DNA of 64,000 nt, taken from Patescibacteria group bacterium (GTDB lineage: Bacteria > Patescibacteriota > Patescibacteriia > UBA2591 > UBA6264). Under the pieces are notes generated by a model that worked only from the letters and a program-made list of their open reading frames with translations, was not told the DNA's origin and did no database searches. The translations under genes and the position numbers were made by a program. The first letter of the stretch is position 1. Each line of letters begins with the position of its first letter. Below, in pieces: positions 31,474 through 54,607 of this stretch. The DNA lies in contig JADHVF010000001.1 of assembly GCA_016784145.1 (NCBI GenBank), positions 90,367-154,366 on the forward strand, given 5' to 3'.

Positions 31474-31480
31474 ATATATT

Positions 31481-34096: not shown

Positions 34097-34101
34097 ATTT
34101 A

Positions 34102-35484: not shown

Positions 35485-35488
35485 AATT

Positions 35489-36253: not shown

Positions 36254-36268
36254 CTTTTAATAAATATT

Positions 36269-36829: not shown

Positions 36830-36843
36830 ATTTTAAATAGACC

Positions 36844-37335: not shown

Positions 37336-37348
37336 ATTTTATAATCTA

Positions 37349-38290
37349 ATGAATAAAAAATATAAAATTGTTTTTTTTGGTACACCTGAATTTGCTGAAA
37401 TAATATTAAAAAAATTAATTAAAACAAAATTCAAACCAATAGTAACTATCACTTGTCCTGATAAATTAATTGGTCGGAAGCAAATTTTATCCCCATCTTT
37501 GACTAAAAAGATAAGCATTAATAATAAAATTGATGTTTGGCAACCAAAATCTTTAAACAATAATGATAAAATTACAAATAAATTATTAAAAATTCAGCCA
37601 GATTTATTCATTGTAACAGCTTATGGGCTAATTCTACCTAAAAAAATTTTAGATATACCAAAATATGGATGTATTAATATACATCCATCTCTTTTGCCAA
37701 AATATAGAGGTGCCTCCCCTATTCATCAATCTATTCTCTCTTTAGACAAACAAACAGGAGTTAGTATTATTCTTATGGATGAAAAAATGGATCACGGCGA
37801 TATAATTATTCAGCAAGAAATTGAAATTAAATTAACTACTTATAAAGAATTATCTAAAAAATTAGCAAACATAGGAGCTGATTTATTAATTGAAATTTTA
37901 CCAAAATGGTTTAAAAATAAATTAAAACCAATTCCACAAAATCATCAACAAGCAAGCTTTACATATAAAATAAAAAAAACAGATGGGAAAATTAATTGGA
38001 ACCAATCTGCTAAAAAAATTGAAGCGAGTATTAGGGCCTATAATCTTTGGCCTAATTCATATACTATTTTAGATAATAAAATTTTAAAAATTATTGAAGC
38101 TAATATTTTAAAAATTAAAAAAAGAGAGCCCGTGGGTAAAGTTTTTTTATCTAAAGATAAAAAAATATGTGTTAGTTGTCAAAAAAACGCTTTAATTCTT
38201 GAAAAAATACAAATACAAGGAAAGAAAATAATAACATCTAGGGATTTCTATAATGGTCACCCTGATATTATTAATTTTGTTTTGTTATAA
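37349..38290 (+). CDS. fmt: Methionyl-tRNA formyltransferase
   Basis: IVFFGTPEFA start, HPSLLPKYRGASPI and C-terminal domain. Confidence 0.85.
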   Translation: MNKKYKIVFFGTPEFAEIILKKLIKTKFKPIVTITCPDKLIGRKQILSPSLTKKISINNKIDVWQPKSLNNNDKITNKLLKIQPDLFIVTAYGLILPKKILDIPKYGCINIHPSLLPKYRGASPIHQSILSLDKQTGVSIILMDEKMDHGDIIIQQEIEIKLTTYKELSKKLANIGADLLIEILPKWFKNKLKPIPQNHQQASFTYKIKKTDGKINWNQSAKKIEASIRAYNLWPNSYTILDNKILKIIEANILKIKKREPVGKVFLSKDKKICVSCQKNALILEKIQIQGKKIITSRDFYNGHPDIINFVLL

Positions 38291-38296
38291 TTTTTT

Positions 38297-38614
38297 TTAT
38301 TCCAACTTTTCAGGTGAATCATCTGAAAAATCTTCTGAATCCGAAGGAATATTTTCAGATGATGAAGGAATATTTTCAGAAAACTCTGGGGCAGATGGCT
38401 GTACTGGAGTTTTTTCTTCTTCTGTCTTGGTTGGCAGAGAAGGTTCTTTAGCTACAATTGGTAAATTTTTTTCTCCTTTTAATGACAAAAAAAGCAAAAT
38501 TAAACCAATTAAAGCGATTCCAATAATAATCAAATAATGAATATCAAGAAAGAGTAATACGATTGCAATTAAAAGAAAAATTATTCCAATTATTAGGTTA
38601 ATTTTTTTGTTCAT
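38297..38614 (-). CDS. Small membrane protein with acidic C-terminal tail
   Basis: Two TM helices, then an S/E/D-rich tail. The overlapping plus-strand ORF 38253..38537 is judged spurious. Confidence 0.4.
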   Translation of the reverse strand: MNKKINLIIGIIFLLIAIVLLFLDIHYLIIIGIALIGLILLFLSLKGEKNLPIVAKEPSLPTKTEEEKTPVQPSAPEFSENIPSSSENIPSDSEDFSDDSPEKLE

Positions 38615-38692: not shown

Positions 38693-40618
38693 TTATTCAT
38701 CAAAAAACCATTCTAAAAGCTCTTTGGCAACCGGAACAGCTACTTTGCTCCCTTCTCCCCCGTTTTCTATCAAAACAACAAAAGCTATCTCTGGATTTTC
38801 ATATGGAGCAAACCCAATAAACCATGCGTGTGGCTCTTTATCTCCTCCAACCTGAGCTGTACCAGTTTTGCCAGCCACATTTATTTTAAGTGTAGATAAT
38901 CTTTTAGCACTCCCGGTTGTGACAGCTCTTCTTAGCCCTGTTTTTATTAATTCAATGCTTTCTTGAGATACAAAATTTTGTCTTAAAATTTTTGGAGATA
39001 TTTGTTGATTTGTTTGATTAGCTTGTGCTTGTATTTCTTTAACCAAAGACGGTTCAAACAATGTGCCATTATTTGCTATAGCAGAAATATAATTAACTAC
39101 TTGAATTGGAGTAACTAAAACATCTCCTTGTCCTATTGAAACATGATAAGTATCTCCAATATACCATTGTTCTTTTTTTACTGCTTGTTTCCATTCTGGA
39201 TTTGCTATTAAGCCAGCCCTTTCAGTTGGTAAATCAATATTTGTTAGTTGATTTAATCCAAATAAATTAGTATAAAAATGTATTTTATCAATACCCAACC
39301 CGTTAAATTTTTCAAAACCGCCTCCAATATAATAAAAAAATGTATTAACTGATTCTGATAATGCTTTTATAACATCTGTATATCCATGCCCTCCTTTTTT
39401 CCAGTCAGCAAAAAACCATTTATCAACATTTATTCCTCCGGTAGAATAAATTAATGTTCTCCCGCTAATTACTTCTTCTTCAAGAGCTCCAATTGCAATA
39501 ATTGGTTTTATAATTGATCCAGATGGATATTCTCCAGCTATTGCTCTAAAAACAAGTGGTTTATCTGGGTTATTAATAATGCTCTCATATTTTATTTTGT
39601 CAGAATCAATAAAAATATTATTATCATAACTAGGCCAGCTAAACATCGCTAAAATTTGACCATTAGATGGATTCATTGCTATTATTGTGCCAGCTCTACT
39701 TTTGTTTTTTTTAATATGTTTTATTAAAATTTCAGATATTTTCCTTTGCAATTCAGCATTTATTGAAAGAACTATATTTTGCCCTGAAATAGATTTTTCT
39801 TGAAAAATTATATTTTTTTCTTTACCCAAAGAATCAACTTCTATTTTTTTTCTGCCATATTTACCTTTTAAAACATCTTCGTAATACAATTCTATTCCCG
39901 TCTTCCCTATATTATCTGTAATTAAATAATCTGGATACTTGGTTAATTCAAGTTTGTTTAATTTACCAACATATCCCAAAATATGAGAAAAATTTGCTGG
40001 CATTAAATAATAACGTTGACTACTTGGCTCAAGTAAAATGCCTTGCAAATTATTGACCACTAGCATTAATTTCATTGCATTTAAATGACTTAAATTATTT
40101 TTGAGAATAACTTTATTATATGAATATGTATTTAAATTTTCAAAAATTTTAATTTGTTCTTGGGTGGATATTTCAAGTTCCTCCATCTTTTTATTCAAAG
40201 CATTGATAATGGTTGCCTTGATTAGCTCGTCTTTTGGCAGGTCTCCGGGCACTACAATTAATGAAAATTTTGGAATATTTTCTACTAATAAATTAAGATT
40301 TGAGTCATAAATAAGCCCTCTATCTGGTTTTATTTTAGTTATTCTAATTCTATTCCCTTCTGCAATATTTTCATATTTATTTCCTAAAACAATTTGTAGC
40401 CAAGTAATTCGCCCAATAATAATTAAAAAACAGAAGATAAATAAAAAATAGAGCCAATAAATTCTACTATTTTTAATTGGCTCAACCAAAGTTGATGCAT
40501 CCATGCTTTCTTGGTTGGTTGAGGTGTAGTCAAACTCTACTGGATTATATGAAGATTTTTCTATTTTATTATCTCTAATACTATTATCTTTTAATTTTAT
40601 TGAAAACAAATCTTTCAT
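38693..40618 (-). CDS. mrdA: Penicillin-binding protein 2 (peptidoglycan D,D-transpeptidase)
   Basis: N-terminal TM and dimerisation domain. Transpeptidase motifs SIIK (SxxK), SxN and KTGTA. Confidence 0.85.
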   Translation of the reverse strand: MKDLFSIKLKDNSIRDNKIEKSSYNPVEFDYTSTNQESMDASTLVEPIKNSRIYWLYFLFIFCFLIIIGRITWLQIVLGNKYENIAEGNRIRITKIKPDRGLIYDSNLNLLVENIPKFSLIVVPGDLPKDELIKATIINALNKKMEELEISTQEQIKIFENLNTYSYNKVILKNNLSHLNAMKLMLVVNNLQGILLEPSSQRYYLMPANFSHILGYVGKLNKLELTKYPDYLITDNIGKTGIELYYEDVLKGKYGRKKIEVDSLGKEKNIIFQEKSISGQNIVLSINAELQRKISEILIKHIKKNKSRAGTIIAMNPSNGQILAMFSWPSYDNNIFIDSDKIKYESIINNPDKPLVFRAIAGEYPSGSIIKPIIAIGALEEEVISGRTLIYSTGGINVDKWFFADWKKGGHGYTDVIKALSESVNTFFYYIGGGFEKFNGLGIDKIHFYTNLFGLNQLTNIDLPTERAGLIANPEWKQAVKKEQWYIGDTYHVSIGQGDVLVTPIQVVNYISAIANNGTLFEPSLVKEIQAQANQTNQQISPKILRQNFVSQESIELIKTGLRRAVTTGSAKRLSTLKINVAGKTGTAQVGGDKEPHAWFIGFAPYENPEIAFVVLIENGGEGSKVAVPVAKELLEWFFDE

Positions 40619-41148
40619 GATTTATGAAAATTAAATTTTGTCATTTTTAAAACAAAAATCATAAAAACAACTAAAAACCCTTGCAAAAATAACAATAAAA
40701 AAATATTAGATATATAAATTTCATTAATATTAATTTTTGTTTCTAATAAATTAAAAAAATAATAGATGTAATTAAGCCCTAAAAAAAATATTTGCCAAAC
40801 AAAACTCATTAAAAATCCAGTAATAAAAATATTTAAAGAACTTGATAAATTTAATTTTTGAACAATAAATTTATAACTAATACAGGCACTTAAAAATAAT
40901 GACAAAAACATTAATCCTTTTGGAAAAATAGAATATATGTCTAACAAAATTCCAGCCCAAGCAAAGAATATCAATAGATTATAAGGAATATTTTTATTAG
41001 ATGGCATTTTGATTGAATATATTATCGCCAAGACAATAATTAAAACAAAAACTAAAGAAATGTCTTTAAATATAAATGTTAAAGATAAATTTAATACAAA
41101 AAAAATTAAAATTAGTAAAAGAATTGAAAAAAATTTAAAAATTTCCAT
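40615..41148 (-). CDS. mreD: Rod shape-determining protein MreD-like polytopic membrane protein
   Basis: 177 aa with ~5 TM helices. Located between the mreC-like gene and PBP2, overlapping PBP2 by 4 nt. Confidence 0.5.
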   Translation of the reverse strand: MEIFKFFSILLLILIFFVLNLSLTFIFKDISLVFVLIIVLAIIYSIKMPSNKNIPYNLLIFFAWAGILLDIYSIFPKGLMFLSLFLSACISYKFIVQKLNLSSSLNIFITGFLMSFVWQIFFLGLNYIYYFFNLLETKININEIYISNIFLLLFLQGFLVVFMIFVLKMTKFNFHKS

Positions 41149-41152
41149 ATGT

Positions 41153-41932
41153 TTATTTTGGAAGTATAATAGAAGCTATCCTAAAATTCTTATTAAAAAA
41201 AGATTTTATAATTATATCCTTAAAAATAGTGCTCGTATTTTCATTTATTGCATCTATTTTTCCAATAATTATACCTCTTCTAATATTTTCTTGTAACCCA
41301 GAAGTAATAATAAAATCATCAATATTTACTTTTTTATTTGATGGAACATATTCTATTTTTATGGTTGATTCATACTGCCCCTTGATAATTCCTGACACAA
41401 TATTGTTTGTTTGTTCATTATCATTAACATTGCTTAAAATATCTGCTGAAATTAAAGACCTATAGTCAAATATTGGCATTAAAAATGAATAATAATCCGT
41501 TGTTTTGTATATTTTACCTATCAAAAACCCTCTGGCATCAACAACTGCTAGCCCGTTGATTACCCCATCATTTTTTCCTTTATCTAATAATGTCCAGTTG
41601 GAATCAACTCCTATTTTTCTACCGATAACGTTAGTTAAAATAAATTTATCTTTTGATTTCTCAAGAAAATTAAGATGTTTTCTTAAAATTTGATTTTCAT
41701 TTTGAAATATTTTAATTTGAGTTTTTTCATCACAAATATTATTATCAAGATTGTTTTGAACTAAAGAAAAAGAAAAAAATCTTTGTAAAGGGCTTAAAAG
41801 AAAATAAAAAACATTTTCTCCTTTAAAGAGAAAAATGAAAAAAAATAAAACAATAATAATTAAAAATATTATTTTTTTTATCATAAAAAAATTATTCTGA
41901 ACCAGGAGTTGAAGTCGTGTTACCTTCTTCAA
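41153..41932 (-). CDS. mreC: Rod shape-determining protein MreC
   Basis: TM helix, coiled-coil (ENQILRKHLNFLEKSKDK), then a beta domain ending ...DFIITSGLQENIRRGIIIGKI. The ATG at 41884 is the likelier start; 41932 is a TTG. Confidence 0.65.
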   Translation of the reverse strand: MKKVTRLQLLVQNNFFMIKKIIFLIIIVLFFFIFLFKGENVFYFLLSPLQRFFSFSLVQNNLDNNICDEKTQIKIFQNENQILRKHLNFLEKSKDKFILTNVIGRKIGVDSNWTLLDKGKNDGVINGLAVVDARGFLIGKIYKTTDYYSFLMPIFDYRSLISADILSNVNDNEQTNNIVSGIIKGQYESTIKIEYVPSNKKVNIDDFIITSGLQENIRRGIIIGKIDAINENTSTIFKDIIIKSFFNKNFRIASIILPK

Positions 41933-44207
41933 TGACTGGAGTTATTGATGATGTGTTTCCAATTATTGGACCATCTTCATATATTTCTCCAACCAAAATC
42001 TCTATTACATCTTCCCATTTAAACCCTAGCATTTCAAATATTTCTCCTGATTGAAAAGCTCTTTTTTTATTATCTTCAATAAAATAAATACCTGAACTGT
42101 TAGGATATTTAATCAAAGTCCCATTTAATCGTCCGCTTATGATATCGCCATCCTCATAAACTTCATTGATGGGAATTTCTATTACGTCTTCCCATTTAAA
42201 TCCTATCATCTCAAATATTTCTCCTGATTGAAAAGCTCTTTTTTTATTATTTTCAATAAGATAAACTCCCGGACTATCAGGATACTTAATCAATGTATTA
42301 TTAGGTCTTCCTTGTATTTGAACAATGAATTGGAAACTATTTATTAACATTTCAAAACAGGTTTTGAAATTTGATTTTTTTTCTATACCAATGTTATAAG
42401 AAATTGCATAGACCCTATCCTCTTTAGCAGTATATATTGTTAATTTTTCAGGATTCCATATAGCTGGTTGATTGTCTATAATTGTCTCAAATAATAATTC
42501 TTCTGCAATGTCTGGAGATTGTCTTAAATACCATTCTTTTGGAGATAATTTTTCTAAATTATTTTCCACTGTGATGCTAAAAAATTCTCCAGTATTAGTA
42601 ATCACTAATACTTCTTGATTAGCTGTTTCTGGCAATGCTCTGGCCAACCATGAACTTGGATAGAAAAAACTATAGGAATAAGTTGGGTTGGTATAAACAT
42701 TAATTAACCCAGAACTGGCAAGTTGTGCTTCTCCAGAATTTAATGGGTGCATTAATGTAAGAACCTCTTGTCCATCAGGGTTTCCGTCACCATCAGTGTC
42801 AGGATTATTTATTTGAGTTGTAAAAATATTTTCTTCTATATTAGTTAATCCATCATTATCTGAATCAATGCTTAGAGGGATATTTGGAGCAATTTGGAAT
42901 TTCTCAATTTTTGGAGTTGTTTTATCCTTGGCAACTAGAATAGCAAAAATTTTTGAAGGCAAAATATCAAAATTAATAGATAACGTATTCTTATTCGTGT
43001 CCAAAATAGATTCAAGAGGTGTCCATAGATTATCTTTAAAATATCCTAAAACTAAGTGCTCTTCCCAATCAGCATTAATAAATTCTTGATTATATGATAT
43101 TTTTAGTCTAACTGACTCAGAAAAAACAAGTGAAAAATCATTTGGCTCAATATTAAAATTATAGATGGTTTCAATAACCTTGTATGAAGATTCTTCTACC
43201 AAAAATTCTTGCTGTAATTTATTTGTCCATAATTGAGATGTAATATTCATTTCAAATGTAGTATTCTCATTAATTGCTCCGGCTGGCAAATAAAATTCAA
43301 TTTCTGCAATTTTTTTGTTTTCATTATTAACCGCCTCGGTTGTAATTATTTGTTCTGCTGATAAAACCTCTTCAATTATCGATTCTTCCTCTATTGGCTG
43401 TTCTTCTTCTTTAATTGTCTCTTCTGCTTGTTCTTCTTCTTTTACCTCTCCTTCTGTTGGCGCTGGCTCTGCTTGTTCTTCTTCTTTTACCTCTGTTTGT
43501 GGTTGAGGTTGTTCTTGAACTGATTGATAATAATTATTCATCCACATAAAAAAACCAAAGCCACCGCCACCAAGTAGTAAAATAATTAAAATTACAAAAA
43601 TTATTATATTTTTCTTTTTCTTTCTTTTTTTCTTTTTTGGTTTAAATTTTTTAAATTTACCGGGCATTGTATAAACCTTTCCCTTAGAAGATGCTCCTTC
43701 TTGGGCTGCTTTTTCAATAATTTCTTTTTTAGCTAACTCAGGCGTTTCAAATTCCTCTTGTTTTGTATCAATCTTCTGGAGCTGAGGAGCTGGAACTGAA
43801 CCAGCCGGCTTTGGGGCTGGTTGAGGCACAGAAGTTGGCTGAGGAGCAGGAACTGAACCAGCCGACTCAGGGGCTGGTTGAGGAGCAGGAGTTGGCTGAG
43901 GAACTGGAACCGAACCAGCCGACTCAGGGGCTGGCTGAGGAGCAGGAGTTGGCTGAGGAGCAGGAACTGAACCAGCCGACTCAGGGGCTGGTTGAGAAGC
44001 AGGAGTTGGCTGAGGAACTGGAACCGAACCAGCCGACTTTGGGACTGGTTGAGGAGCAGGAGTTGGCTGAGGAGCAGGAGTTGGCTGAGAAACAGGAGTT
44101 GGCTGAGGAACTGGAACCGAACCAGCCGGCTTTGGGGCTGGTTGAGGAGCAGGAGTTGGCTGAGATTGAGGAGACGAATTATTTGTTTTATTTTTATCTT
44201 CAAACAT
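41892..44207 (-). CDS. Giant membrane/surface protein: cytoplasmic Pro-rich tandem repeats, one TM, then an extracellular region with Ca-binding and ~48-aa repeats
   Basis: N-terminal ~190 aa consist of 6-7 copies of PQPTPAPQPAPESAGSVPV. A KKKKRKKKK stretch and a TM helix follow. After that come an E/Q-rich segment, DSDNDGLTN...DTDGDGNPDG, and two C-terminal VYLIENNKKRAFQSGEIFEM repeats. Confidence 0.6.
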   Translation of the reverse strand: MFEDKNKTNNSSPQSQPTPAPQPAPKPAGSVPVPQPTPVSQPTPAPQPTPAPQPVPKSAGSVPVPQPTPASQPAPESAGSVPAPQPTPAPQPAPESAGSVPVPQPTPAPQPAPESAGSVPAPQPTSVPQPAPKPAGSVPAPQLQKIDTKQEEFETPELAKKEIIEKAAQEGASSKGKVYTMPGKFKKFKPKKKKRKKKKNIIIFVILIILLLGGGGFGFFMWMNNYYQSVQEQPQPQTEVKEEEQAEPAPTEGEVKEEEQAEETIKEEEQPIEEESIIEEVLSAEQIITTEAVNNENKKIAEIEFYLPAGAINENTTFEMNITSQLWTNKLQQEFLVEESSYKVIETIYNFNIEPNDFSLVFSESVRLKISYNQEFINADWEEHLVLGYFKDNLWTPLESILDTNKNTLSINFDILPSKIFAILVAKDKTTPKIEKFQIAPNIPLSIDSDNDGLTNIEENIFTTQINNPDTDGDGNPDGQEVLTLMHPLNSGEAQLASSGLINVYTNPTYSYSFFYPSSWLARALPETANQEVLVITNTGEFFSITVENNLEKLSPKEWYLRQSPDIAEELLFETIIDNQPAIWNPEKLTIYTAKEDRVYAISYNIGIEKKSNFKTCFEMLINSFQFIVQIQGRPNNTLIKYPDSPGVYLIENNKKRAFQSGEIFEMIGFKWEDVIEIPINEVYEDGDIISGRLNGTLIKYPNSSGIYFIEDNKKRAFQSGEIFEMLGFKWEDVIEILVGEIYEDGPIIGNTSSITPVIEEGNTTSTPGSE
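43760..44200. repeat. In-frame 57-nt tandem repeat array (~7 units) inside the 771-aa gene
   Basis: Units such as ctgaggagcaggaactgaaccagccgactcaggggctggttgaggagcaggagttgg repeat with minor variation. Coding, not CRISPR. Confidence 0.6.
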
Positions 44208-44211
44208 AAAA

Positions 44212-44826
44212 TTATTTTAATTTTTTTATTTCTTCTTGTAAATTAAATAATAAAGCACCTACGTCTGGATTATTTGGGTCTTTTCTGTTTTTTATTTCAT
44301 CTCCGTCAGTATTTCCATCTCCATCAGTATCTTTATTTAAAGGATCTGTTAAATAAATTTTTACTTCTTCATAATCTGATAATCCATCATCATCTGAATC
44401 TATTTTATTTTTATTTGTGCCCAACGCTGATTCTTCTTCGTCTTTAAGTCCATCCCTGTCAGCATCATCGTTGATGTCTTTTTTAATAATTGATTCATCT
44501 TTTTCTTGAACATTTACTTCTGGAGCTGGATTGACTATCGGAATAATAATTTCTGGCTGGTTAGTTTGTTTTAAATTTTTCCAACCATACAATGCTCCCC
44601 CAACAACCATTATTACTATAATTATAAGTATGGTTGGTTTTAAAAATTTTTTCAATAATAATTTTTTTGGCAAAGGATTATCAACATTCACTTGTCTCAC
44701 TTTAATTGGAGATTTGTTCTTGTTAGCCATTAAATCAGCTTCTTGCTTAAATGTCTCTTGATTTGTTTGTTTTTTAGAAGACCTTTCAACTTCTTTAAAA
44801 ATATCTTCTATTTTTTCTTCTGACAT
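44212..44826 (-). CDS. Membrane-anchored protein with thrombospondin-type-3-like Ca-binding repeats
   Basis: TM helix. DADRDGLKDEEE, DSDDDGLSDYEE and DTDGDGNTDGDE match the DxDxDGxxDxxE motif. Confidence 0.55.
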   Translation of the reverse strand: MSEEKIEDIFKEVERSSKKQTNQETFKQEADLMANKNKSPIKVRQVNVDNPLPKKLLLKKFLKPTILIIIVIMVVGGALYGWKNLKQTNQPEIIIPIVNPAPEVNVQEKDESIIKKDINDDADRDGLKDEEESALGTNKNKIDSDDDGLSDYEEVKIYLTDPLNKDTDGDGNTDGDEIKNRKDPNNPDVGALLFNLQEEIKKLK

Positions 44827-44853
44827 AAATATAATTTTTTATTTTTTTATAAA

Positions 44854-47800
44854 TTAATTACACGAAGAACAACCTTCTTGATAGAAGAAACAATAATAAT
44901 TAACCATAACTTCATTGGAATATTCCGATGTATTATTAATATTATATGCTTTTATTCTATAATGATAAATATCGCCAGTATTTCCCATAACATTTTCGTC
45001 ATTATATAAATATTCATTAGCTGGAATACTGTCTGTTAGAATTAGCCATGATTCACTGTTGAATTTTCTTTCTAAAATAAAACCCGTTTGTCCATTATCA
45101 CCATAATCTGGCCATAACAAGCGAATCTCTTCATCATCTATTTGACAAAAATTTAATGCAGGAGCAGGCAACAATGTAGTCACTTCTGACTGATTAGAAT
45201 AGCCAGAACTACCACCACTATTATAGGCCTTGACCTTGTAATTATAAGTCATATTTATTCCAAGCCCAGTATCATTATTGTATGAATTTTCATTTACTCC
45301 GAGAGCTACGATTTCTACCCAGCTTGTCCATGTTCCATCAATTAAATCAGCTCTTTCAATTATAAACCCTGTTTCGTTTGTAGAATTATCACTCCATGAT
45401 AAATTTACTTGAGACGAAGATACTGCTAAAGCCGATAAACCGCTTGGAGCAAGTGGGGCCAATGGATGGGTTGTTTCAAAAGCAATGTTTGAATAAGTTG
45501 AATCCCCACCATTATTATAGGCCTTTATTTGATAATGATAAAGAGTATTTGGAGCTAAACTTCCATCAATATATGATGTTACATCATAAGCAACCGTGTT
45601 AATCTCTTGCCAAATAACTCCATCAGAGCTTCTTTCTATTTTAATTCCTGTTTCAGTATCAGCATTGTCTGTCCATGATAATTCTATTTGTGATGAAGAT
45701 ATTACGGTTGCTGATAAATCGCTTGGAGTTGATGGAATATCAATAACACAACTATCATCGCCTACTTGGTGATAGCCATTAATACAATTATCTACCAAAC
45801 AAGTTATTCCACTCCAATTGGGCCAAGCAGGAGGATGAATACTAAAATTGCAATCCCTATGCTGTGTTCCGTCTCCGCAATCAACTTGAGTTCCATATAA
45901 ATCACAATACAAGTCACAAACTTGTGTTTCTGAATTATTGGCAGGTACATCCGGGTTTGTAAAAGCATCTGTACAATGAGCTACTTCACACTGATTGTTA
46001 TAAATTCTATAATAGCCATCAGTTGGATTATAAAGACATTCATTTAAAACACATGACCAATTTTGCCAAAAAGGAGGATGGCTATCAATGCATTCTCTTG
46101 ATTCATCAGCATCTTGAGCATGTTCTTTTAGGGCTGTGCAATCTCTTGTGTCAAAATCCCCTATAGTTCCCCATGTATTTTCATCATCAGAACAATGATC
46201 TAATTCACAAATATTATATGATTGATAAATCCTATAGCCATAATCACATGCTGTAACATAACAAGTCCCCCATGCTCCCCAGTCAGGATTAGGGCAAGAA
46301 TCAAGACAAGTTCTTTCTTGTTCGCCATTTCCATTGGCCATGCCACAATCTCTTGTTTGTGATTGATCAATATCTGTATTTGGAGACACACAATGGTCTA
46401 GTCCACAATAAATACAATCGTTATTGGCTAGTAAACATGTCTGCCCAGGAGTACATCCCCTGTAATCATTATTGCAAGTAGTAGCATAACAACTTCCCCA
46501 TGCTCCCCAGTCAGGCGTTGGTTGAGTTGGGTAATAATCTTCGCAATACCTCTGTTGTTCGCCCTGTCCATTAGCGATTGAACATGTTTGAGCATTAGAA
46601 TCATTAATTTCTCCAGCTGGTGATTGACACTGGTCTAACTGACATGTGTTTTGCCAACCCCGATAATTCTCATTACAAGACCAACTACATTCTCCATCAA
46701 TACATTGAGATGTTCCATTGTCAGGCACATAACAAATATTTCCACAAACATCACAATTGTCAGCAGAGCCACCAATATGAGTTTCGCAACCATTTGAAGT
46801 ATCTTCTTGAAGGTCTCCATTACAATCAGCCCAATCTATCTCACAAGCCCACCCAAAACAAAGAGTAGTTTGATTACAAAAAGCATTTTCTTTAGAATTT
46901 TGATTTTGATCACAAACTTCTCCACATTCCATGATATTATTGCCACAAACAGGAGCTTCTGGCGGACTATATGAAAAATTGGAAATACCTATTTCGTCTA
47001 ATTGAGAAATTATTATATTATCTTCATTACCAGAAATATCTTCTCCTTGCCAAGTAACATATCCATCAGTTGGCTTATATTCAAAATTAGCAGCCCCGGT
47101 ATAATAATCCCCTAAGCAAGCCGAATCTTCTGGAGCATAATATTGATAAACATAAGAGCCATTAGGATGTTCAAAATAAAAAGTATTTGAATTATAACAA
47201 GTATTATTACATTGATAATCAGACGAATCAGTGTCTGATGGACAGCCAGCACAAAATCCATTAAATTCATTAATAGGGTCAATCGGTAGTGTTTGCCCCA
47301 ATAAAGACCCAAAGACATTTTGCCATGAAATCCATTTACTATTTGTTTGCCCCTGGATATAGGTGCCTGATGTTAATTCTGGATAATTTCCTGATGAATT
47401 TTTATAATTTTTTAAATTAGGAATAATTGCTTGCTTAAAGTCATAAATTCTATTTAAATCCCTTTTAATCTGATTCTTGTGATTTTCGTCTTCAATATTA
47501 ACATTAAATCTCCAGTTGCTTAACATTTGATTAAAAATATTTATGGTGTCTGAGCTAGCATTATCATTGCGAGAAATAAGATAAATTCTAGTGTTAATAA
47601 CTGGACTTGTTTCTTCATCCATAACATCAGCTACTCCAACATAAATTGTTCTGCCGTCATTAAGCCCGTTATAGCCATCAATAACTACATTGGTTGGGCT
47701 TCCAGGAGAATAAGCATATTCATTATACCAGTCCAAAACCTTAAAACGTTTAGGATTTTTATATACTCTCAAACCAATCACATCGTCATTCCCTGTTATT

Positions 47801-47970
47801 GGGAAAATGATTTCCTTGACCATGTTTTCGGTTGGCATTAAAAATACAGGAGTATCTATCTCAGGTAAAAGATCCTGTGCAGACGTGAATTTATAATTAA
47901 TAAAAATCAAAAATAATACAGCCACCATACTGATAAATAATAAAATTTTTATTATTGTTTTTTTAAACAT
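44854..47970 (-). CDS. Giant secreted protein (1038 aa): Cys-rich central region plus three C-terminal fibronectin type III-like repeats
   Basis: Signal-anchor, >60 Cys in the middle ~500 aa, then repeats of the form LSxxxxSSSQIxLSWxDN...TGxxIER...YxYxxKAYNxGG. Confidence 0.6.
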   Translation of the reverse strand: MFKKTIIKILLFISMVAVLFLIFINYKFTSAQDLLPEIDTPVFLMPTENMVKEIIFPITGNDDVIGLRVYKNPKRFKVLDWYNEYAYSPGSPTNVVIDGYNGLNDGRTIYVGVADVMDEETSPVINTRIYLISRNDNASSDTINIFNQMLSNWRFNVNIEDENHKNQIKRDLNRIYDFKQAIIPNLKNYKNSSGNYPELTSGTYIQGQTNSKWISWQNVFGSLLGQTLPIDPINEFNGFCAGCPSDTDSSDYQCNNTCYNSNTFYFEHPNGSYVYQYYAPEDSACLGDYYTGAANFEYKPTDGYVTWQGEDISGNEDNIIISQLDEIGISNFSYSPPEAPVCGNNIMECGEVCDQNQNSKENAFCNQTTLCFGWACEIDWADCNGDLQEDTSNGCETHIGGSADNCDVCGNICYVPDNGTSQCIDGECSWSCNENYRGWQNTCQLDQCQSPAGEINDSNAQTCSIANGQGEQQRYCEDYYPTQPTPDWGAWGSCYATTCNNDYRGCTPGQTCLLANNDCIYCGLDHCVSPNTDIDQSQTRDCGMANGNGEQERTCLDSCPNPDWGAWGTCYVTACDYGYRIYQSYNICELDHCSDDENTWGTIGDFDTRDCTALKEHAQDADESRECIDSHPPFWQNWSCVLNECLYNPTDGYYRIYNNQCEVAHCTDAFTNPDVPANNSETQVCDLYCDLYGTQVDCGDGTQHRDCNFSIHPPAWPNWSGITCLVDNCINGYHQVGDDSCVIDIPSTPSDLSATVISSSQIELSWTDNADTETGIKIERSSDGVIWQEINTVAYDVTSYIDGSLAPNTLYHYQIKAYNNGGDSTYSNIAFETTHPLAPLAPSGLSALAVSSSQVNLSWSDNSTNETGFIIERADLIDGTWTSWVEIVALGVNENSYNNDTGLGINMTYNYKVKAYNSGGSSGYSNQSEVTTLLPAPALNFCQIDDEEIRLLWPDYGDNGQTGFILERKFNSESWLILTDSIPANEYLYNDENVMGNTGDIYHYRIKAYNINNTSEYSNEVMVNYYCFFYQEGCSSCN

Positions 47971-47977
47971 AAATTAT

Positions 47978-50900
47978 TTAATCCCTACAATATAATAATT
48001 CAAAATTGGTTTCTTCATTTTCACCAACAGCATTACCATAATTGGTTCCTCCTGTCCAATCCTGATAAAACCAAGGATTTTCACATAAAAAAACCTTGGT
48101 TTGAATCTTTTTTAAATATTGATCCCCAACTGTCTGATTAAGAGCATCAATAATGATTTCAATGCCTCCTATTATTTCAGAGTTCCCATTATTATTTTGA
48201 ACCACCCCTGTTTCATTATCAGTAGTTGACGAATCATTAATATTGATTATCTCTTGGTCAGAAGATGACCATAACCATTGCCATTCATATAGGTTTGTCA
48301 CTTGTATAATTTGATTATTGTCATCATCTTTTACTGTTGCCATAAAATCAATATCATCTCCTGCATTAAAAAAGATAAAATCATTCTCTGAAATTTCTTG
48401 AGTATTTTCAATAATTTCAGGAATTACGTCTATATCTATTAAGTTTGCCGAACAAATATCTTCTTTGGTTGAAAATTCAAACAAATAATCATTTCCCATG
48501 ACAATATCATAAAAACTATATATTCCATTTTCTCCTCCACTGATTTCTATCTTATAATCATTATTGGCTATTAATAATCCTACATTTATATAAACTTCTG
48601 TTTTATTATTAGCATTATGAAATTTAGATATAACAATTGGCAATTCACACCACCAAACACCTTGCGCTTCTTCATAACAATTTAATTCTGTCTGAGATGC
48701 CTCATATTTGCCATAAAAATTTATTGTGGTTGATGAAATAGTGGCTAAGTTTGCCTTTTGATTAAATACAATAATAGGAAAAATATTTCTACAAACACCA
48801 GATTCATTATTACTTGGATTGATTGACTCTATATTAATTTGTGTAGCAACCTCTAAATGAATTTGTGCTTCCGTATCTTGCCCATCAAGAGTTGTGGTTG
48901 AAACAATATCAATTTCACCCAAAGAAACAGATTCTGCTTGAGCTTGAGATGGTTCTGTTTGTGGTGTTATTGTAGCAATGCCAATATCTGATGATGCCCA
49001 TGCCCATGTCATACCACTTGTTAAAATCTGACAATTTGGACCAATGGCAGAAGAAAAATAATCTCTTGTATTAGGGTGGATAATTTTTCCTGGCAATTCA
49101 TCTGCTGGAACATTTTCAATAAGCATAACCTGTTCAACCGGACAAAGTTCTTCTTGATTATTTGTTTTAAATTTCCAAACATAATCATCATTAGGAGTGT
49201 TATCTTCAAATCCATTTTCGTTACCATCTAATTGATTGCCTGTTTCTCCTACAACACCGCTAGGACCACTTTTAATAATTGCCTGATACCAATAATTAGC
49301 ATCTAAAAGATTATCTGGTTCAAATTTAACCCCAGTATAATTTGATAATTGCATTTCTATTATTGAGCCACTAATTACAACGCAATCCTCTTGATCAAAA
49401 TCTTCATTAGCAGAATTACATTTTTTAATAATAATATTATTATTATTTAACCCAGTAGTTACAATTTGATTAAATTCAACTAAAATGCCTGCGTTTTTAC
49501 AAGCATAATCTGAGTCAGGCCATGGGTTTGGAGTTCTGTATGAAGAAGAACAATCATTCCTTTGGGCTACCATTAATAACTCTTCTCCTTCTGGAATTTC
49601 AGTCATAAAATGTAAAGAATTGCTATTTATCCATTCTTCATCCCATATTTCTTCCCAATCACCAAAACAGGTCTCCCCAAACTGAAAACCATTACAAACT
49701 AAACGAAAATTTGTTTTAATTTTTTTCCTTACAAACACTCCTCCTGTAACTGCTTGAGCTGGTACAGCAATATCATCTATTAAAGTATCAGATACCCATG
49801 ATAAAACTCCAGCCAATTTATTATTTTTAAAAATTAGTTCTCTACCCGTAATTTCAGGTTCTAAGGTAAATCTCACTCCCTTTATTTCAATAGGAGAATA
49901 CCCTACTAGCCCATAATAAGGATCTATTGAACACAAAGCTGGGCCTAATGGGCTTTTATTAACTTCCCATGATTTTTCATTACTATTAATTCCAGCTGAT
50001 GTTTCAATGAAAACATCAACATCATAATTATTTGATTCTTCTGAAAGAGCAGGCAATTCGTTTGGCACCACAACAATAATTTGTTCATTAGTCCAGTTAG
50101 ATGGACAAAAATCTGGCAAAGAATCAGCTAAATAATTAATTCCATTATATTTAAAATAAACATTTCCAAAAGATGAACCAAAGTTTTCGCCTTTAATAGT
50201 TATCCAAGTTGTCAAGGGCCCATTATCAGGAGTAATTTTAATAATTTTAGGTGGTTTATAAAATGGAACCGGATTAGACGCCTTTAAGGGAAATCCTGTT
50301 TCAATTGGTGAGCGAACCCTAACAATAACATCTGCTTCTTGTTCTTGATTGTTTGGCACATTAAAACCAATTGATATATTTTCCCAATTATTCTCGTCAA
50401 TTCCATCAATAGTTGTGCCCGCAAAAGTAACATTACTATCCCCAATATCATTACCAAAACTAATTCCATTAATATCAATATTATCTCCAACATTACCATT
50501 ATTTGGGTTTAATTTACAAATTGCCGGATGAAATTCAGCAGTAACGAAGAAATCTTCTTTATTGCTTTCTCCCCAATAAGGATCAATTACAGCTACCTGA
50601 TAACTTTCATCCATTGTTAGCTCTGCTGGAACAACTGCTACAATTTTTGTATCTGACCAATTATTACAACCTATTTCAGCTGTATAAATGTTTTCTTGTG
50701 AATCCTTAAACCCAATATATTTTTGTCCTTTATTATTACTAAAATGTTCCCCCGTAATAGTAATATAAGTTGGGATGGTAATATCATTTGTTCCTCTATT
50801 TGGACTAATTTCCGTGATAACTGGCAATTGATGGTCTAAAGAAGTGAAAGGCAAAGGATTGCTTTGACCAATGTTATTAATTAAAACAACATCACCTGTG

Positions 50901-53017
50901 ACTGTTCCAAGAGGAACCAGTGCTGAAGATACTTTAATATCTGTCCATGAATCATAAGAAGCAATTTTATTAGAATAAAACCTTACTTGAGATAATTCAG
51001 ATTCCTCATCAAATCTTATTCCTCTTAAATCAACATTATTTATGTTTGGATAACCATAAGCAGGTGTTATTTTAAATAAGCATGGTCCTTGTGCCTGAAA
51101 CAAACTATCAACATAAAATTGAGAAGAATTACTTTCCAAGGACTGCCCACTATCTTCATAAACAATTGATGTTTTAACATCAAGTATATCCCCCTCCAAG
51201 TAGTCTGCCCCTTCATTGTCAGACGGAACCATTGTAGTAATGTATCGCCCGTCATAACCTTGAACAGGCATTGTGATAATAGTACTTGTGGCTGCCCCGG
51301 CAACAAAATTAACATCAAAAGGTTCGGCTGGCTGATAAGTTGTCCCGGCCAAACATGAACCATGAATTGTCAAACACTCCCCTTCTGATCCTTGATCCGG
51401 GGTTAACCGCGAAATAAATGGAGAACAAACACATGTTTCTAAAGTAGCTGAAGTAAAATCCCATGAATGTGTGAGTAAATCTCCTTGCTGATTCATCACT
51501 AAATCAGTCATTATAGATACATTATATGGTGTATTATTTTGCAAATTATTGTCTAATTCAAGTATAAAAACCTTGAATTTGTTCATATTTTGAACATCAT
51601 CAACCCTAAATGTTCCACCCGCAAATTGAACAGAGTATGGTTCGCCAACTTGAGATGGGTTTATGCTTATGTTTATATTGTCCCCTCCCCCTGTTAAAGT
51701 AATTTCAACCCGTTTGTTATACATAGATGTATTGAAAACAGCCATAATGTCAGCATCTGGACAGGTATTGTCTCCAGTAGGATGCCATGATTTTATGCCA
51801 GGAGATGAATCATTTGTTTGAAATTCCCACTCTTTTGCTTCAGTCATTTCATTGCCACAAAGGTCCATAATATGTTCAACGTGAATTCTATACCAAGTAA
51901 ATGATTCCAATAAATTACTATCAATTAATTCTAAATTAAAACCATTACCAGCCATCTCTACCTCCCAAACATCAGCCATAAATGTTTCTTCTATTGCTCC
52001 TCCTTCTTCACTCAATTTGTCTACCCAAATATTATTTGCTATTAAATTATTGTTTTCGTCCATTACTGTCGTCACATCAATCGGCTCTGAAAATCTTACT
52101 TGAATAACTGGGTTCATGGAGACATTTGTGTCTGGATAATCAAGGTCATTAATATCAGAAATTGGATAAGTTGAAGTAACTTCCGGATTAATGATGTCTG
52201 TTGTTTCTCCGGTTGTAAAATCCCAAATAAAATTACTGCCTGTTTCTTGACAATTACCCGAGGCAATACATTCTTGTAATGTCCGGCCCTGCGAATCTAA
52301 TATTTGTTTTGGTAAATAAGCAGAATAATTAGTATTAGCATCAAAAAGTGTAGCCACATGTTTAAAAATAATAGCATTATTACGTGTTTGCCATGTTCCA
52401 GTAAAAATTTCTCCAACATTATTAGTTATTTTTATGCTTTCATCAAGAACTAAATCATCTATTTTCCCGCTATTAACCCTAGAATTAAAAAGGGGCTGAA
52501 CAGCTGAACAAAGATATACATCTTGATGATAGCTTGCCTCATCCCCACCATGAGTTGTCTCAATTTTGGTTATTTTAAAAACATCACCATATGAACCAGA
52601 ACCACCTGGGTCTCCTCCTGATCCTGTCCACCCCTCCCCTGTAATTCCAGCAAATCTAGTCATTATAAAAGCCACTATTGCATACGAAGAAAGAATAATT
52701 ATCATTCCAATTATGCCTTCTTGCATAATTCTTCTAGCTTTTTTTATTTTTTCAGGGTCACCAGCTGAAGTTAACCAAATAACCCCTCCTGTTATTATTA
52801 TAATTACACCGATTAATCCGAGTAAACCAAGCACGATTTTTATAATATTGCCAACAACTTGAGGTAAATCAGCTTGTCCATACCCGGCTGTGTTGCCAAA
52901 ATCTGACAAGCCTTGGTTAAGATTCATTTCATTTTGAGCTAAAACATTAGCAAGAGGTGAAAAAAATAAAAAAGCAAAAAATAATAATAAAAATATAATT
53001 TTAAAAATATTCTTCAT
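47978..53017 (-). CDS. Giant protein (1679 aa) with N-terminal TrbC/VirB2-like T4SS-pilin module fused to a ~1500-aa extracellular region
   Basis: Signal peptide ...LANVLA/QNE, then the two-helix module VVGNIIKIVLGLLGLIGVIIIITGGVIWL-TSAGDPEKIKKARRIMQEG-IIGMIIILSSYAIVAFIM, characteristic of VirB2/TrbC-type pilins. Then a G-rich linker and a long beta-rich region. Confidence 0.55.
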   Translation of the reverse strand: MKNIFKIIFLLLFFAFLFFSPLANVLAQNEMNLNQGLSDFGNTAGYGQADLPQVVGNIIKIVLGLLGLIGVIIIITGGVIWLTSAGDPEKIKKARRIMQEGIIGMIIILSSYAIVAFIMTRFAGITGEGWTGSGGDPGGSGSYGDVFKITKIETTHGGDEASYHQDVYLCSAVQPLFNSRVNSGKIDDLVLDESIKITNNVGEIFTGTWQTRNNAIIFKHVATLFDANTNYSAYLPKQILDSQGRTLQECIASGNCQETGSNFIWDFTTGETTDIINPEVTSTYPISDINDLDYPDTNVSMNPVIQVRFSEPIDVTTVMDENNNLIANNIWVDKLSEEGGAIEETFMADVWEVEMAGNGFNLELIDSNLLESFTWYRIHVEHIMDLCGNEMTEAKEWEFQTNDSSPGIKSWHPTGDNTCPDADIMAVFNTSMYNKRVEITLTGGGDNINISINPSQVGEPYSVQFAGGTFRVDDVQNMNKFKVFILELDNNLQNNTPYNVSIMTDLVMNQQGDLLTHSWDFTSATLETCVCSPFISRLTPDQGSEGECLTIHGSCLAGTTYQPAEPFDVNFVAGAATSTIITMPVQGYDGRYITTMVPSDNEGADYLEGDILDVKTSIVYEDSGQSLESNSSQFYVDSLFQAQGPCLFKITPAYGYPNINNVDLRGIRFDEESELSQVRFYSNKIASYDSWTDIKVSSALVPLGTVTGDVVLINNIGQSNPLPFTSLDHQLPVITEISPNRGTNDITIPTYITITGEHFSNNKGQKYIGFKDSQENIYTAEIGCNNWSDTKIVAVVPAELTMDESYQVAVIDPYWGESNKEDFFVTAEFHPAICKLNPNNGNVGDNIDINGISFGNDIGDSNVTFAGTTIDGIDENNWENISIGFNVPNNQEQEADVIVRVRSPIETGFPLKASNPVPFYKPPKIIKITPDNGPLTTWITIKGENFGSSFGNVYFKYNGINYLADSLPDFCPSNWTNEQIIVVVPNELPALSEESNNYDVDVFIETSAGINSNEKSWEVNKSPLGPALCSIDPYYGLVGYSPIEIKGVRFTLEPEITGRELIFKNNKLAGVLSWVSDTLIDDIAVPAQAVTGGVFVRKKIKTNFRLVCNGFQFGETCFGDWEEIWDEEWINSNSLHFMTEIPEGEELLMVAQRNDCSSSYRTPNPWPDSDYACKNAGILVEFNQIVTTGLNNNNIIIKKCNSANEDFDQEDCVVISGSIIEMQLSNYTGVKFEPDNLLDANYWYQAIIKSGPSGVVGETGNQLDGNENGFEDNTPNDDYVWKFKTNNQEELCPVEQVMLIENVPADELPGKIIHPNTRDYFSSAIGPNCQILTSGMTWAWASSDIGIATITPQTEPSQAQAESVSLGEIDIVSTTTLDGQDTEAQIHLEVATQINIESINPSNNESGVCRNIFPIIVFNQKANLATISSTTINFYGKYEASQTELNCYEEAQGVWWCELPIVISKFHNANNKTEVYINVGLLIANNDYKIEISGGENGIYSFYDIVMGNDYLFEFSTKEDICSANLIDIDVIPEIIENTQEISENDFIFFNAGDDIDFMATVKDDDNNQIIQVTNLYEWQWLWSSSDQEIININDSSTTDNETGVVQNNNGNSEIIGGIEIIIDALNQTVGDQYLKKIQTKVFLCENPWFYQDWTGGTNYGNAVGENEETNFELLYCRD

Positions 53018-53024
53018 CTTAAAA

Positions 53025-53483
53025 TTAAATATTAGATAATTGCTTTTGAACTATTTGTTTAATTTTGTCGCCTGAAGCTCTGCCTTTTATTTCTTTTATC
53101 GCCATGCCCATTACCTTGCCAAAATCTTTCATTCCCTGAGCATTTATGTTTTTTATAATTTCTGAAACTATTTTAATAATAATTGCTTTATCAAGTTCAA
53201 CTGGTAAATATTTTGATAAAATTTTTAATTCATTGGCTTCTTTCTCAAGCAAATCCTTTCTGCCTCCTTTTTTATAAAACTCAATTGCTTCTGTCCGTTT
53301 CTTGGCTTGTTTTTGAATTATATTAACTGCAATCTCATCTGTCATTAATTGCTCAAGAGGACGTAATTCAACTTCTTTATTTAATAAAGCAGTTTTTATA
53401 TCTCTTAAAACAACTGCCAAATCACGGTCTTTTGATTTTATAGATTTTATTAAATCTACTTCAATTTGTTTTAATAATTCCAT
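53025..53483 (-). CDS. GatB/YqeY domain-containing protein
   Basis: 152 aa. Typical yqeY sequence, and adjacent to rpsU as in Bacillus. Confidence 0.75.
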   Translation of the reverse strand: MELLKQIEVDLIKSIKSKDRDLAVVLRDIKTALLNKEVELRPLEQLMTDEIAVNIIQKQAKKRTEAIEFYKKGGRKDLLEKEANELKILSKYLPVELDKAIIIKIVSEIIKNINAQGMKDFGKVMGMAIKEIKGRASGDKIKQIVQKQLSNI

Positions 53484-53487
53484 AAAA

Positions 53488-53706
53488 TTATTTTATTCTA
53501 CCTGTTTTTTTTAAATAAAATAATTGCTCTGACGTTTTCTTTTTCTTGAGTGCGTTTTCTTTCCTGGCCCTTTTATTTAAGGGTTTGGTTAGAAATTTTG
53601 TTTTTTTCTTTTGGTTAAGAATACCACTACGTTTTACTCTGTCAGAAAATTTTTTTAGAAAAAAATTCATTGGTTCATTTTGTTTTCTTTTGCTTTCAAT
53701 TGCCAT
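53488..53706 (-). CDS. rpsU: 30S ribosomal protein S21
   Basis: 72-aa basic protein (MAIESKRKQNEPMNFFLKKFSDRVKRSGIL...) matching the S21 pattern. Confidence 0.8.
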   Translation of the reverse strand: MAIESKRKQNEPMNFFLKKFSDRVKRSGILNQKKKTKFLTKPLNKRARKENALKKKKTSEQLFYLKKTGRIK

Positions 53707-53746
53707 AATAATTTCATTTTAACAAACATAAATTAAAAAGTAAATA

Positions 53747-54604
53747 TTATTTATGTTTTTGTATTTTATTTATTATTCTATTTAAATCATCATTATTATA
53801 TGCTTCAATAATAATTTTAACTTTTTTCACGGTTGGCTGTAATTTAACTTTTGTTTCAAGAAATAATGATAATTCTTCTTCTTTGGCTAATAAATTTCTA
53901 TCAGGAGTTATTTTTTTTCTAAATTTATTGCCAGCTGCTATTTGAGCTGTTTCCCTAACAGTCAATCCTGCTCCAAGTATTCTTTTTAACATTAATTTTC
54001 TACTTTGTTCATTTTTAATTGCTAGTAAGGCCTTAGCATGTCCCTCTGTTATCCTTTCGTCTCTAACTGCTTGTTGAATTATGTCTGGCAAAGTTAATAA
54101 TCGTAATGTATTAGCAATGTTTGCTCTTGACTTCCCTATCCTCTCTGATATTTGCTCTTGAGTTAGATTAAATTCATCAATTAATCTTTGATAAGCAACT
54201 GCATTTTCCATTGGATTTAAGTCTTTTCTTTGAATATTTTCTATTAAAGAAATTTCTAATTTTTCATTATTTTTAATTGAGCGAACCAATGACGGCACTT
54301 CATCCATTTCTAAAAATTTAGCAGACCGCCAACGTCTTTCTCCTGCAATTATTTCATATTTATCAGGCGATGAAGAAATTTTAGTAAGAATTATTGGCTG
54401 AATAATCCCATTTTTTTTAATTGAATTAATTAATTCTTCCATTTCAGAATGAGCAAAATTTTTTCTTGGTTGATTTGGGTTTGGATTAATTTGATTTATT
54501 GGTATTAACAAAACATTTTCTTTTGTTTTTCCCAAAACTTCTTGTGAGTGTTTTCTAATTGATTTTGAAGGGATTAAAGCCCCTATTCCTCTTCCTAAAG
54601 ACAT
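53747..54604 (-). CDS. parB: Chromosome partitioning protein ParB/Spo0J
   Basis: ParB box IELIENIQRKDLNPMENAVAYQRL plus HTH region. Confidence 0.9.
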   Translation of the reverse strand: MSLGRGIGALIPSKSIRKHSQEVLGKTKENVLLIPINQINPNPNQPRKNFAHSEMEELINSIKKNGIIQPIILTKISSSPDKYEIIAGERRWRSAKFLEMDEVPSLVRSIKNNEKLEISLIENIQRKDLNPMENAVAYQRLIDEFNLTQEQISERIGKSRANIANTLRLLTLPDIIQQAVRDERITEGHAKALLAIKNEQSRKLMLKRILGAGLTVRETAQIAAGNKFRKKITPDRNLLAKEEELSLFLETKVKLQPTVKKVKIIIEAYNNDDLNRIINKIQKHK

Positions 54605-54607
54605 AAT

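Follow-up and report, generated by a model that had tools for sequence, protein, structure and literature searches.

What occupies the position of mreB when mreC, mreD and mrdA are found without it? This question is raised by a 64-kb stretch of Patescibacteria DNA (the window; GC ~28%, coding 93%), in which a minus-strand block at 38693-53706 runs from rpsU to the PBP2 gene and brings genes for very large surface proteins next to mreC, mreD and mrdA. The gene directly ahead of mreC encodes a 771-amino-acid (aa) envelope protein with a single membrane span. The window MreC is identical to NCBI MBL7053704.1, which is named MreC and lies on a 237-kb contig, and the same organism has been assembled in several ENA metagenomes (L001-L006). 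The anatomy of the block, its conservation among relatives and the breakpoint that created it can be described with high confidence. As to its meaning, our best overall explanation, which we hold at slightly better than even, is a clade-conserved block in which a surface module has been placed at the mreB position beside mreC-mreD-mrdA and acts by the mechanism proposed below.

A first-pass annotation, made from the letters of the window, had given the coordinates of the block, its minus-strand order and its gaps of 4-27 nucleotides (nt) or short overlaps, and these were confirmed from the coordinates of the open reading frames (ORFs). In order of transcription, the genes are:

53488-53706, minus strand: rpsU-like gene, divergent ribosomal protein S21, 72 aa; 4-nt gap to yqeY
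53025-53483, minus strand: yqeY, GatB/YqeY-domain protein, 152 aa (PF09424, E 9.5e-37); 7-nt gap to the 1679-aa gene
47978-53017, minus strand: 1679-aa gene, N-terminal part of a split giant surface protein; 7-nt gap to the 1038-aa gene
44854-47970, minus strand: 1038-aa gene, C-terminal part of the split giant protein; 27-nt gap to the 204-aa gene
44212-44826, minus strand: gene for a 204-aa single-span TSP3 protein; 4-nt gap to the 771-aa gene
41892-44207, minus strand: gene for the 771-aa single-span envelope protein; 7-nt gap to the mreC ATG at 41884
41153-41884, minus strand: mreC, 243 aa from the ATG at 41884; 4-nt gap to mreD
40615-41148, minus strand: mreD, 177 aa, polytopic membrane protein; 4-nt overlap with the PBP2 gene
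38693-40618, minus strand: mrdA (PBP2, elongation-type class B transpeptidase), 641 aa, with PBP_dimer and Transpeptidase domains

The three elongation genes differ in how readily they are named. MreC passes the gathering score of PF04085 (89.4 bits versus 28) and falls just below the cutoff of TIGR00219 (88.9 versus 92.75); its start at the 41884 ATG is the same call as in public assemblies, while an alternative TTG at 41932 would overlap the 771-aa gene. PBP2 passes the pbp2_mrdA equivalog TIGR03423 (560.8 bits versus a cutoff of 455). The 177-aa protein has no Pfam or NCBIfam match. When the clade alignment of this protein was compared by hhalign with bona fide MreDs (seven of the nine reference sequences match PF04093), the probability was 94% (E 1.2e-7), and the match included the G…D motif. 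We accept the protein as MreD on this profile-profile match and on its conserved place between mreC and PBP2. rodA is not adjacent to the block. At the other end, the rpsU-like protein is sub-threshold in both libraries (PF01165, 20.3 bits versus a gathering score of 27, E 4.6e-4; TIGR00030, 24.9 versus 28.95, E 1.3e-5), and an S21 gene occupies the same position in the relative L052.

To see how far this arrangement extends, we assembled two sets of related loci. The first was anchored on the 771-aa protein, which has 26 close homologues at 45-59% identity, all from Patescibacteria, and comprised seven relatives, including the 640-kb JAQUPP010000001.1 and the 266-kb JGI contig Ga0118720_1000011. 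In all seven, the order is giant gene, TSP3 gene (~200 aa), 771 homologue, MreC, MreD and PBP2, preceded by YqeY or by S21 and YqeY wherever the flank reaches (YqeY lies directly 5' of the giant gene in L044, L046 and L052). The second set was anchored on MreC: an MreC alignment, used to scan metagenomes, recovered 16 loci whose MreCs are 32-48% identical. Every one of them (16/16) has a 771 homologue directly 5' of mreC, with the TSP3 and giant genes further 5' where the flank allows, and none of these loci has mreB. A more distant family member, P0033 (L071), is also followed by mreC. Altogether, the block order is kept in all of the 20-plus related loci retrieved, down to ~30-40% MreC identity, and across 15 or more distinct genomes all seven internal junctions are intact. 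No in-clade locus carries mreB-mreC-mreD-pbp2 with the giant genes elsewhere.

The flank beyond PBP2 has been less stable. Its 3' neighbour varies within the clade between at least two states, greA and following genes or, as in the window, a small ORF and a convergent fmt, and L044 has in addition acquired two genes by insertion on the 3' side, one of them PIG-L and the other encoding a beta-helix protein. That the internal junctions stayed intact while the 3' flank was rearranged argues, without proving it, that the block is held by selection, a conclusion toward which we lean.

We then asked where the block was joined. Outside the clade, the nearest MreCs (29-32% identity) belong to genomes of Parcubacteria type. 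Two of these outgroup loci (L073 and L074) read mreB-mreC-mreD-PBP2-greA-aspS-type synthetase(-serS), and a third (L072) reads mreB-mreC-murB; six in-clade loci (L046, L050, L059, L060, L063 and L066) read 771-mreC-mreD-PBP2-greA-aspS-serS. The downstream synteny common to clade and outgroups places the breakpoint exactly at the mreB/mreC junction. A protein scan of genome contigs with the single MreC retrieved distant MreCs alone (25-31% identity), which served as mreB-mreC controls: mreB lies directly 5' of mreC in ~30 other bacteria, including the Patescibacteria locus L019. The first-pass statement that the 771-aa gene sits in the usual mreB slot is thus correct in an evolutionary sense.

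Its other statement on this point, that the window contains no mreB, also held. A tblastn search with E. coli MreB was negative, as was an MreB hidden Markov model (HMM) run on the six-frame translation (E up to 10). Across the window and all in-clade loci together (468 kb), the HMM found nothing below E 2. With the L019 MreB as query, none of the best 120 of 8,000 homologue matches lay on three clade contigs (640,230, 265,956 and 237,493 bp), and the outgroup MreB clusters have no member on these contigs.

In one reading, the clade has lost MreB, and the 771-type protein, possibly with the TSP3 and giant proteins, positions MreC, MreD and PBP2 as a RodZ-like or outside-in, wall-reading scaffold. 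The position of the 771 gene, exactly where mreB would stand, and the 468 kb in which no mreB was found favour it, and ovococci such as Streptococcus pneumoniae set a precedent by keeping mreCD without mreB. A further point in its favour is a (K/R/H)GEN(V/I)F motif that follows the membrane span of the clade MreCs directly (window 41153-41884; L044-L071) and is absent from outgroup MreCs with an adjacent mreB. However, the DNA sampled, ~64 kb of the window's genome and ~20 kb per relative, represents ~3-10% of each genome. Moreover, MreB is encoded in 75-95% of Patescibacteria metagenome-assembled genomes and in most classes (PMC8672522, PMC11809585). Because these published surveys find MreB in most Patescibacteria and the closest outgroups have mreB, we think it probable that mreB was relocated rather than lost, and we regard the loss of MreB, with its attendant scaffold, as very unlikely. 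The anatomy of the 771-aa protein, to which we now turn, bears on the same question.

The first-pass annotation had described the 771-aa protein as having a cytoplasmic Pro-rich region, one membrane span and an extracellular part. This topology is consistent with the positive-inside rule, the sequence and the structure model. We characterised the family with alignments of 21 and then 60 members, together with a survey of sequences N-terminal to the membrane span; at E up to 1e-30, a library clustered at 50% identity yields 590 representatives of the family. The cytoplasmic part begins with MFED (residues 1-4; conserved as MFE(E/D)), continues with a Pro-rich 19-aa repeat (~12-147) and is disordered apart from one helix. 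Residues ~153-190 (window 43638-43751) hold a conserved helix, TPELAKKEI, and a (Y/H)(V/T)MPxKF motif, then a Lys-rich stretch; the motif lies 15-25 residues ahead of the Lys-rich stretch and membrane span. The span itself (~197-220) is followed by an acidic linker and an ectodomain made up of an immunoglobulin (Ig)-like beta-sandwich (~286-426), a TSP3 loop (446-482), a PsbP-fold (~502-624) and two ~55-aa repeats (~634-749).

The ectodomain is modelled confidently (AF2 with the 60-sequence alignment, pLDDT 92.1), whereas the full-length AF2 model has a pLDDT of 58 and no significant PDB match. In a Foldseek comparison, the middle ectodomain matched cyanobacterial PsbP 2xb3 (E 1e-5, probability 1.00, TM(target) 0.54); the Pfam PsbP_2 match is sub-threshold. 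The TSP3 match (PF18884) is likewise sub-threshold at 17.8 bits, while its DxDxDG residues are invariant across the 60 homologues. The family alignment, used as a profile against PDB sequences, gave no match. Weak NCBIfam matches (FliL, PASTA kinase, GltJ and YidC) were rejected, as they fall on the span or on low-complexity sequence and are far below cutoffs. There is no Pfam match to the actin family (MreB_Mbl, PF06723). The 771-aa protein lacks an actin fold, most of it lies outside the cell, and we do not regard it as an analogue of MreB.

A RodZ-like role is a separate matter. The topology of the 771-aa protein is RodZ-like and its short cytoplasmic motifs are conserved; were MreB lost, the ectodomain would read the wall, and the MFEE and VMPxKF motifs would recruit cytoplasmic partners. 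Against this, Pfam matches at E up to 0.01 include no helix-turn-helix (HTH) and no RodZ_C/DUF4115 domain. In addition, the MFE N-terminus and the VMPxKF-type motif are family-wide: they occur in hundreds of otherwise divergent Patescibacteria single-span proteins (P0029-P0163), among them P0046, whose checked context has no adjacent mreC, and many other distant members. The motifs therefore cannot be read as elongasome-specific.

The first-pass annotation had also proposed that the Pro-rich PxxP tail forms a structural link between the surface proteins and the elongasome. This proposal did not survive comparison with homologues, in which the tail ranges from absent to ~250 aa. In the window it is encoded by a tandem repeat:

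43781..44079: 57-nt tandem repeat, 5.2 copies, 89% matches (TRF); encodes the Pro-rich tail

Since its length is variable, the tail is a poor candidate for a conserved interaction surface. The repeat also raises local GC and yields spurious ORFs at 43733-44203 (minus strand) and 43763-44209 (plus strand). In another sample of the same species (L001 3739-6054), the copy of the 771 gene shows 2 mismatches to the window over 2316 nt and is divided by the gene call into ORFs of 191 and 551 aa; either some members of the population carry a premature stop, or the low-coverage (~5x) assembly is in error.

Elsewhere among Candidate Phyla Radiation (CPR) proteins, the ~55-aa C-terminal repeats are found together with Amidase_2, SpoIID and CAP domains, and they give a weak EccB signal; from this domain co-occurrence, they probably bind the cell wall. 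Several copies of the same repeat are present in a 460-aa secreted protein encoded elsewhere in the window (34102-35484, plus strand). That protein has no Pfam or NCBIfam match, a homologue of it adjoins ClpB in L051, L055 and L064 as well, and it is possibly a protein of an uncharacterised kind that binds or modifies the wall.

The two other members of the surface module are the giant protein and the TSP3 protein. The 1679-aa protein opens with a signal peptide, after which comes a two-span T4SS_pilin domain of VirB2-like type (residues 51-118; PF18895, 29.3 bits versus a gathering score of 26.6, a pass), followed by Big_5 (PF13205) and IPT/TIG (PF01833) domains; the same T4SS_pilin domain is recorded in the giant proteins of relatives. 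The 1038-aa protein begins with a new Met and a hydrophobic signal or anchor and continues with Cys-rich repeats and three FN3 domains (PF00041). In relatives, a single ORF of 2865-3043 aa spans both genes: the 1679-aa protein aligns to its first two thirds, and residues 25-480 of the 1038-aa protein align to its C-terminal part (best 25-344 in L048 and 125-480 in L046). The L048 protein reads through the split junction as FFYCRDADPLLPEL. In the window, the junction (47971-47977) consists of LLYCRD and a stop, 7 nt, and then MFKK…TSAQDLLPEI, so that the split falls at a domain boundary (…YCRD / DLLPE…). These alignments show that the two genes arose by fission of one ~3000-aa gene. Two further observations concern relatives: the giant gene of L051 is also split (L051 2159-2229), independently or ancestrally, and the giant protein of L046 (231-9362, 3043 aa) carries a Hint/intein module (PT-HINT, Intein_splicing) with no counterpart in the window version.

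The 204-aa protein is always encoded between the giant gene and the 771 homologue. An alignment of eight orthologues shows a conserved cytoplasmic N-terminus (M-P/S-E-E…EDIF), one span, three TSP3 calcium-binding repeats and a C-terminal helix that is likewise conserved; PF18884 passes its gathering score (36.6 bits versus 25).

The pilin-like domain raises another reading, namely that the giant protein and its two partners belong to a Patescibacteria type IV secretion or pilus apparatus for epibiotic growth, and that their adjacency to mreCD is incidental. Besides the passing PF18895 score, the NCBIfam model of the Mbov_0395 pilin-like conjugal transfer protein gives a sub-threshold match (27.7 bits versus a cutoff of 40), and VirB2-like pilins are widespread in Patescibacteria, some of them essential (PMC12102498). 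The window also encodes an 840-aa TraG/VirD4-like coupling ATPase (6230-8752, plus strand; TraG-D_C, TrwB_AAD_bind and DUF87), which fits Patescibacteria type IV secretion; however, this gene is 40 kb from the block and on the other strand. In none of the loci is virB4, virB6, virB3 or trsD found within 10 kb of the block. The pilin-like segment makes up ~70 of ~3000 residues and may simply be a two-span anchor. We consider membership in a secretion apparatus very unlikely, and return to our preferred reading of a surface module, in which the pilin-like domain may serve as the membrane anchor of the giant protein.

Is the block transcribed as a unit? The first-pass annotation had noted that no terminator hairpins separate its genes, and we found none in any intergenic gap: the 10 terminator-like sites of the region are all intragenic, compared with 8.7 expected by chance. 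The short gaps, the absence of intergenic terminator-like sites and the conserved order are indirect indications that the block may be co-transcribed. A consensus scan placed a possible start of the transcription unit directly upstream of rpsU:

53716..53744, minus strand: promoter-like site TTTACT-17-TAAAAT with an upstream TG (extended -10), in the 40-nt parB-rpsU gap

In this AT-rich DNA, promoter-consensus matches are common, at 127 versus 103 expected. The co-directional run noted in the first pass is real; it extends further than described, from 38297 to 59327. None of the 11 genes inspected in this interval has a recognisable Shine-Dalgarno sequence, and starts are preceded by AT-rich leaders of the aatttt type; arguments for translational coupling that draw on ribosome-binding sites are therefore unavailable.

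Several points weigh against treating the block as a single functional unit. First, tight packing is the norm of this genome: 30 of the 50 same-strand gene pairs of the window have gaps of at most 30 nt, the median gap is 14.5 nt, and unrelated neighbours (ClpB, the 460-aa secreted protein, LigB, LemA and fmt) are packed equally tightly. Second, promoter-like sites occur within the block at about the chance rate, for example at 53345-53317 in yqeY and at 44242-44214 just before the 771 start codon. Third, the gap between the TSP3 and 771 genes, 4 nt in the window, is 23-326 nt in relatives, and the 326-nt spacer of L044 (L044 9675-10000) holds a stable hairpin (-30.7 kcal/mol, z -3.0) that is possibly a regulatory element or a terminator. 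Fourth, the in-clade loci may all descend from one rearrangement and so may not be independent events. Fifth, in the distant member P0046 (L069 and L070), a large protein, a TSP3 protein and a 771-like protein are followed by unrelated genes on the opposite strand (ligA) with no mreC. Finally, the evidence for a wall-binding role consists of domain co-occurrence and the weak EccB similarity.

Because spacing and co-direction are the genome norm, spacing alone says little about an operon, and the window taken alone gives weak grounds for one. The run at 38297-59327 falls to one side of a region in which GC skew and gene orientation both switch, and replication-strand bias would be enough to make its genes co-directional. 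The switch itself, a change in the sign of the skew at ~26000-38300 where plus-strand genes on the left converge with minus-strand genes on the right, looks like a terminus, yet parA/parB (53747-55387) are only ~16 kb away. A hairpin in the TSP3-771 gap is present in L044, weak in L050 and L048, and absent in L051 and L052, and was therefore rejected as a conserved feature. The spacer between the 771 gene and mreC, in comparison, is 7-49 nt in all loci and unstructured everywhere. Because the TSP3-771 spacer widens, with a hairpin in L044, we doubt that one transcript runs from rpsU to mrdA in every member. On the most conservative reading, 771-mreC-mreD-mrdA may be the tightest unit, with rpsU-yqeY-giant-TSP3 reading through into it or forming an adjacent unit.

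The same observations are the substance of the principal competing explanation, inherited synteny with no functional coupling. Here, one neutral rearrangement put rpsU-yqeY and the surface module beside mreC, or moved mreB away; the order persists as compact, strand-biased CPR genomes rearrange slowly, and the surface proteins serve host attachment or a surface layer. Short gaps and long co-directional runs throughout the genome, the position of the run on one side of the skew switch and the possible descent of all in-clade loci from a single event fit this account, as does the frequency of MreB in Patescibacteria surveys cited above, by which mreB probably just moved. The trio without mreC in L069 and L070 fits it as well: the three surface genes travel together, their union with mreCD-mrdA is clade-specific, and the association is not obligatory. 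What inherited synteny explains less well is that the 3' flank of the same genomes was rearranged at least once and received an insertion, yet 0/7 internal junctions broke and the 771-mreC spacer stayed at or below 49 nt. We judge it unlikely, while giving it more room than either the loss of MreB or a secretion apparatus.

We suggest the following course of events for the clade-conserved surface module. The module comprises three genes, for a ~3000-aa giant protein (a VirB2-like hairpin anchor with Big_5, TIG and FN3 domains), a ~200-aa TSP3 protein and a 771-type protein, and sits behind the common rpsU-yqeY pair. It predates the present arrangement, as a distant copy lies away from mreC, and one ancestral rearrangement with its breakpoint between mreB and mreC probably made the present order. 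The block would be transcribed as one unit or as two adjacent units, of which 771-mreC-mreD-mrdA would be the tightest. The two single-span proteins may hold the giant protein, which resembles an adhesin or an S-layer protein, to the wall that MreC, MreD and PBP2 are making, or may help to assemble it there, and growth of the surface layer and synthesis of the side wall would thereby be co-expressed. In other bacteria, surface-layer insertion is coupled to sites of wall growth. That the surface module is linked directly, physically or in function, to the elongasome is a more tentative proposition, which we hold to be less likely than not.

One observation on a related locus stands apart from the block. 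In L051 (14154-16358), a homologue of the RuBisCO large subunit adjoins a gene of the IF-2B family (ribose-1,5-bisphosphate isomerase-like), a pairing typical of the CPR nucleotide-salvage pathway.

How the ultra-small CPR bacteria construct their envelope and give it shape is little understood, as is the display of the huge surface proteins with which they are believed to attach to hosts. The block offers a testable hypothesis, that assembly of a surface layer or adhesin is coupled to peptidoglycan elongation, and it defines a large uncharacterised family (at least 590 representatives at 50% clustering) with conserved cytoplasmic motifs, a confidently modelled ectodomain and probable wall-binding repeats. 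Should the clade lack MreB, it would constitute a natural experiment in actin-independent organisation of the elongasome, encoded where mreB used to be. If mreB merely moved, the block would still be a useful marker of co-regulated envelope genes, a modest finding.

In the literature searched, there is no account of a surface module joined to the side-wall synthesis genes at the site of mreB. Only individual domains are shared with TSP3 and PsbP/Mog1 proteins, with no overall homology or common gene context found: the Myxococcus TSP3 surface proteins CglD and MtsD share the DxDxDG calcium-binding repeats, and PsbP/Mog1-fold proteins have their fold in common with the middle ectodomain of the 771-aa protein. 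Patescibacteria VirB2-like pilins (PF18895; PMC12102498) are small proteins, often encoded in arrays near virB4, whereas here the domain is the N-terminal anchor of a ~3000-aa protein. The canonical mreB-mreC-mreD(-mrdA-rodA) operon, as in E. coli, B. subtilis, L073 and L074, has the same mreC-mreD-mrdA order with overlapping or nearly abutting frames; the block differs in that a 771-type gene, preceded by the TSP3 and giant genes, stands in place of the 5' mreB, and in that rodA is not adjacent. Among MreB-less ovococci, S. pneumoniae keeps mreCD while mreB is absent genome-wide. The block resembles it in having mreC and mreD without an adjacent mreB, an absence that is shown here for the locus, and differs in its surface-protein module, which does not precede the pneumococcal mreCD. 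With RodZ, finally, the difference lies in the domains: the 771 ectodomain is built of an Ig-like domain, a TSP3 loop, a PsbP-fold and wall-binding-type repeats, with neither the HTH nor the RodZ_C/DUF4115 domain detected. The likeness lies in the plan, as both proteins have a cytoplasmic N-terminus, a membrane-proximal basic segment, one span, a low-complexity linker and a beta-rich extracytoplasmic domain.

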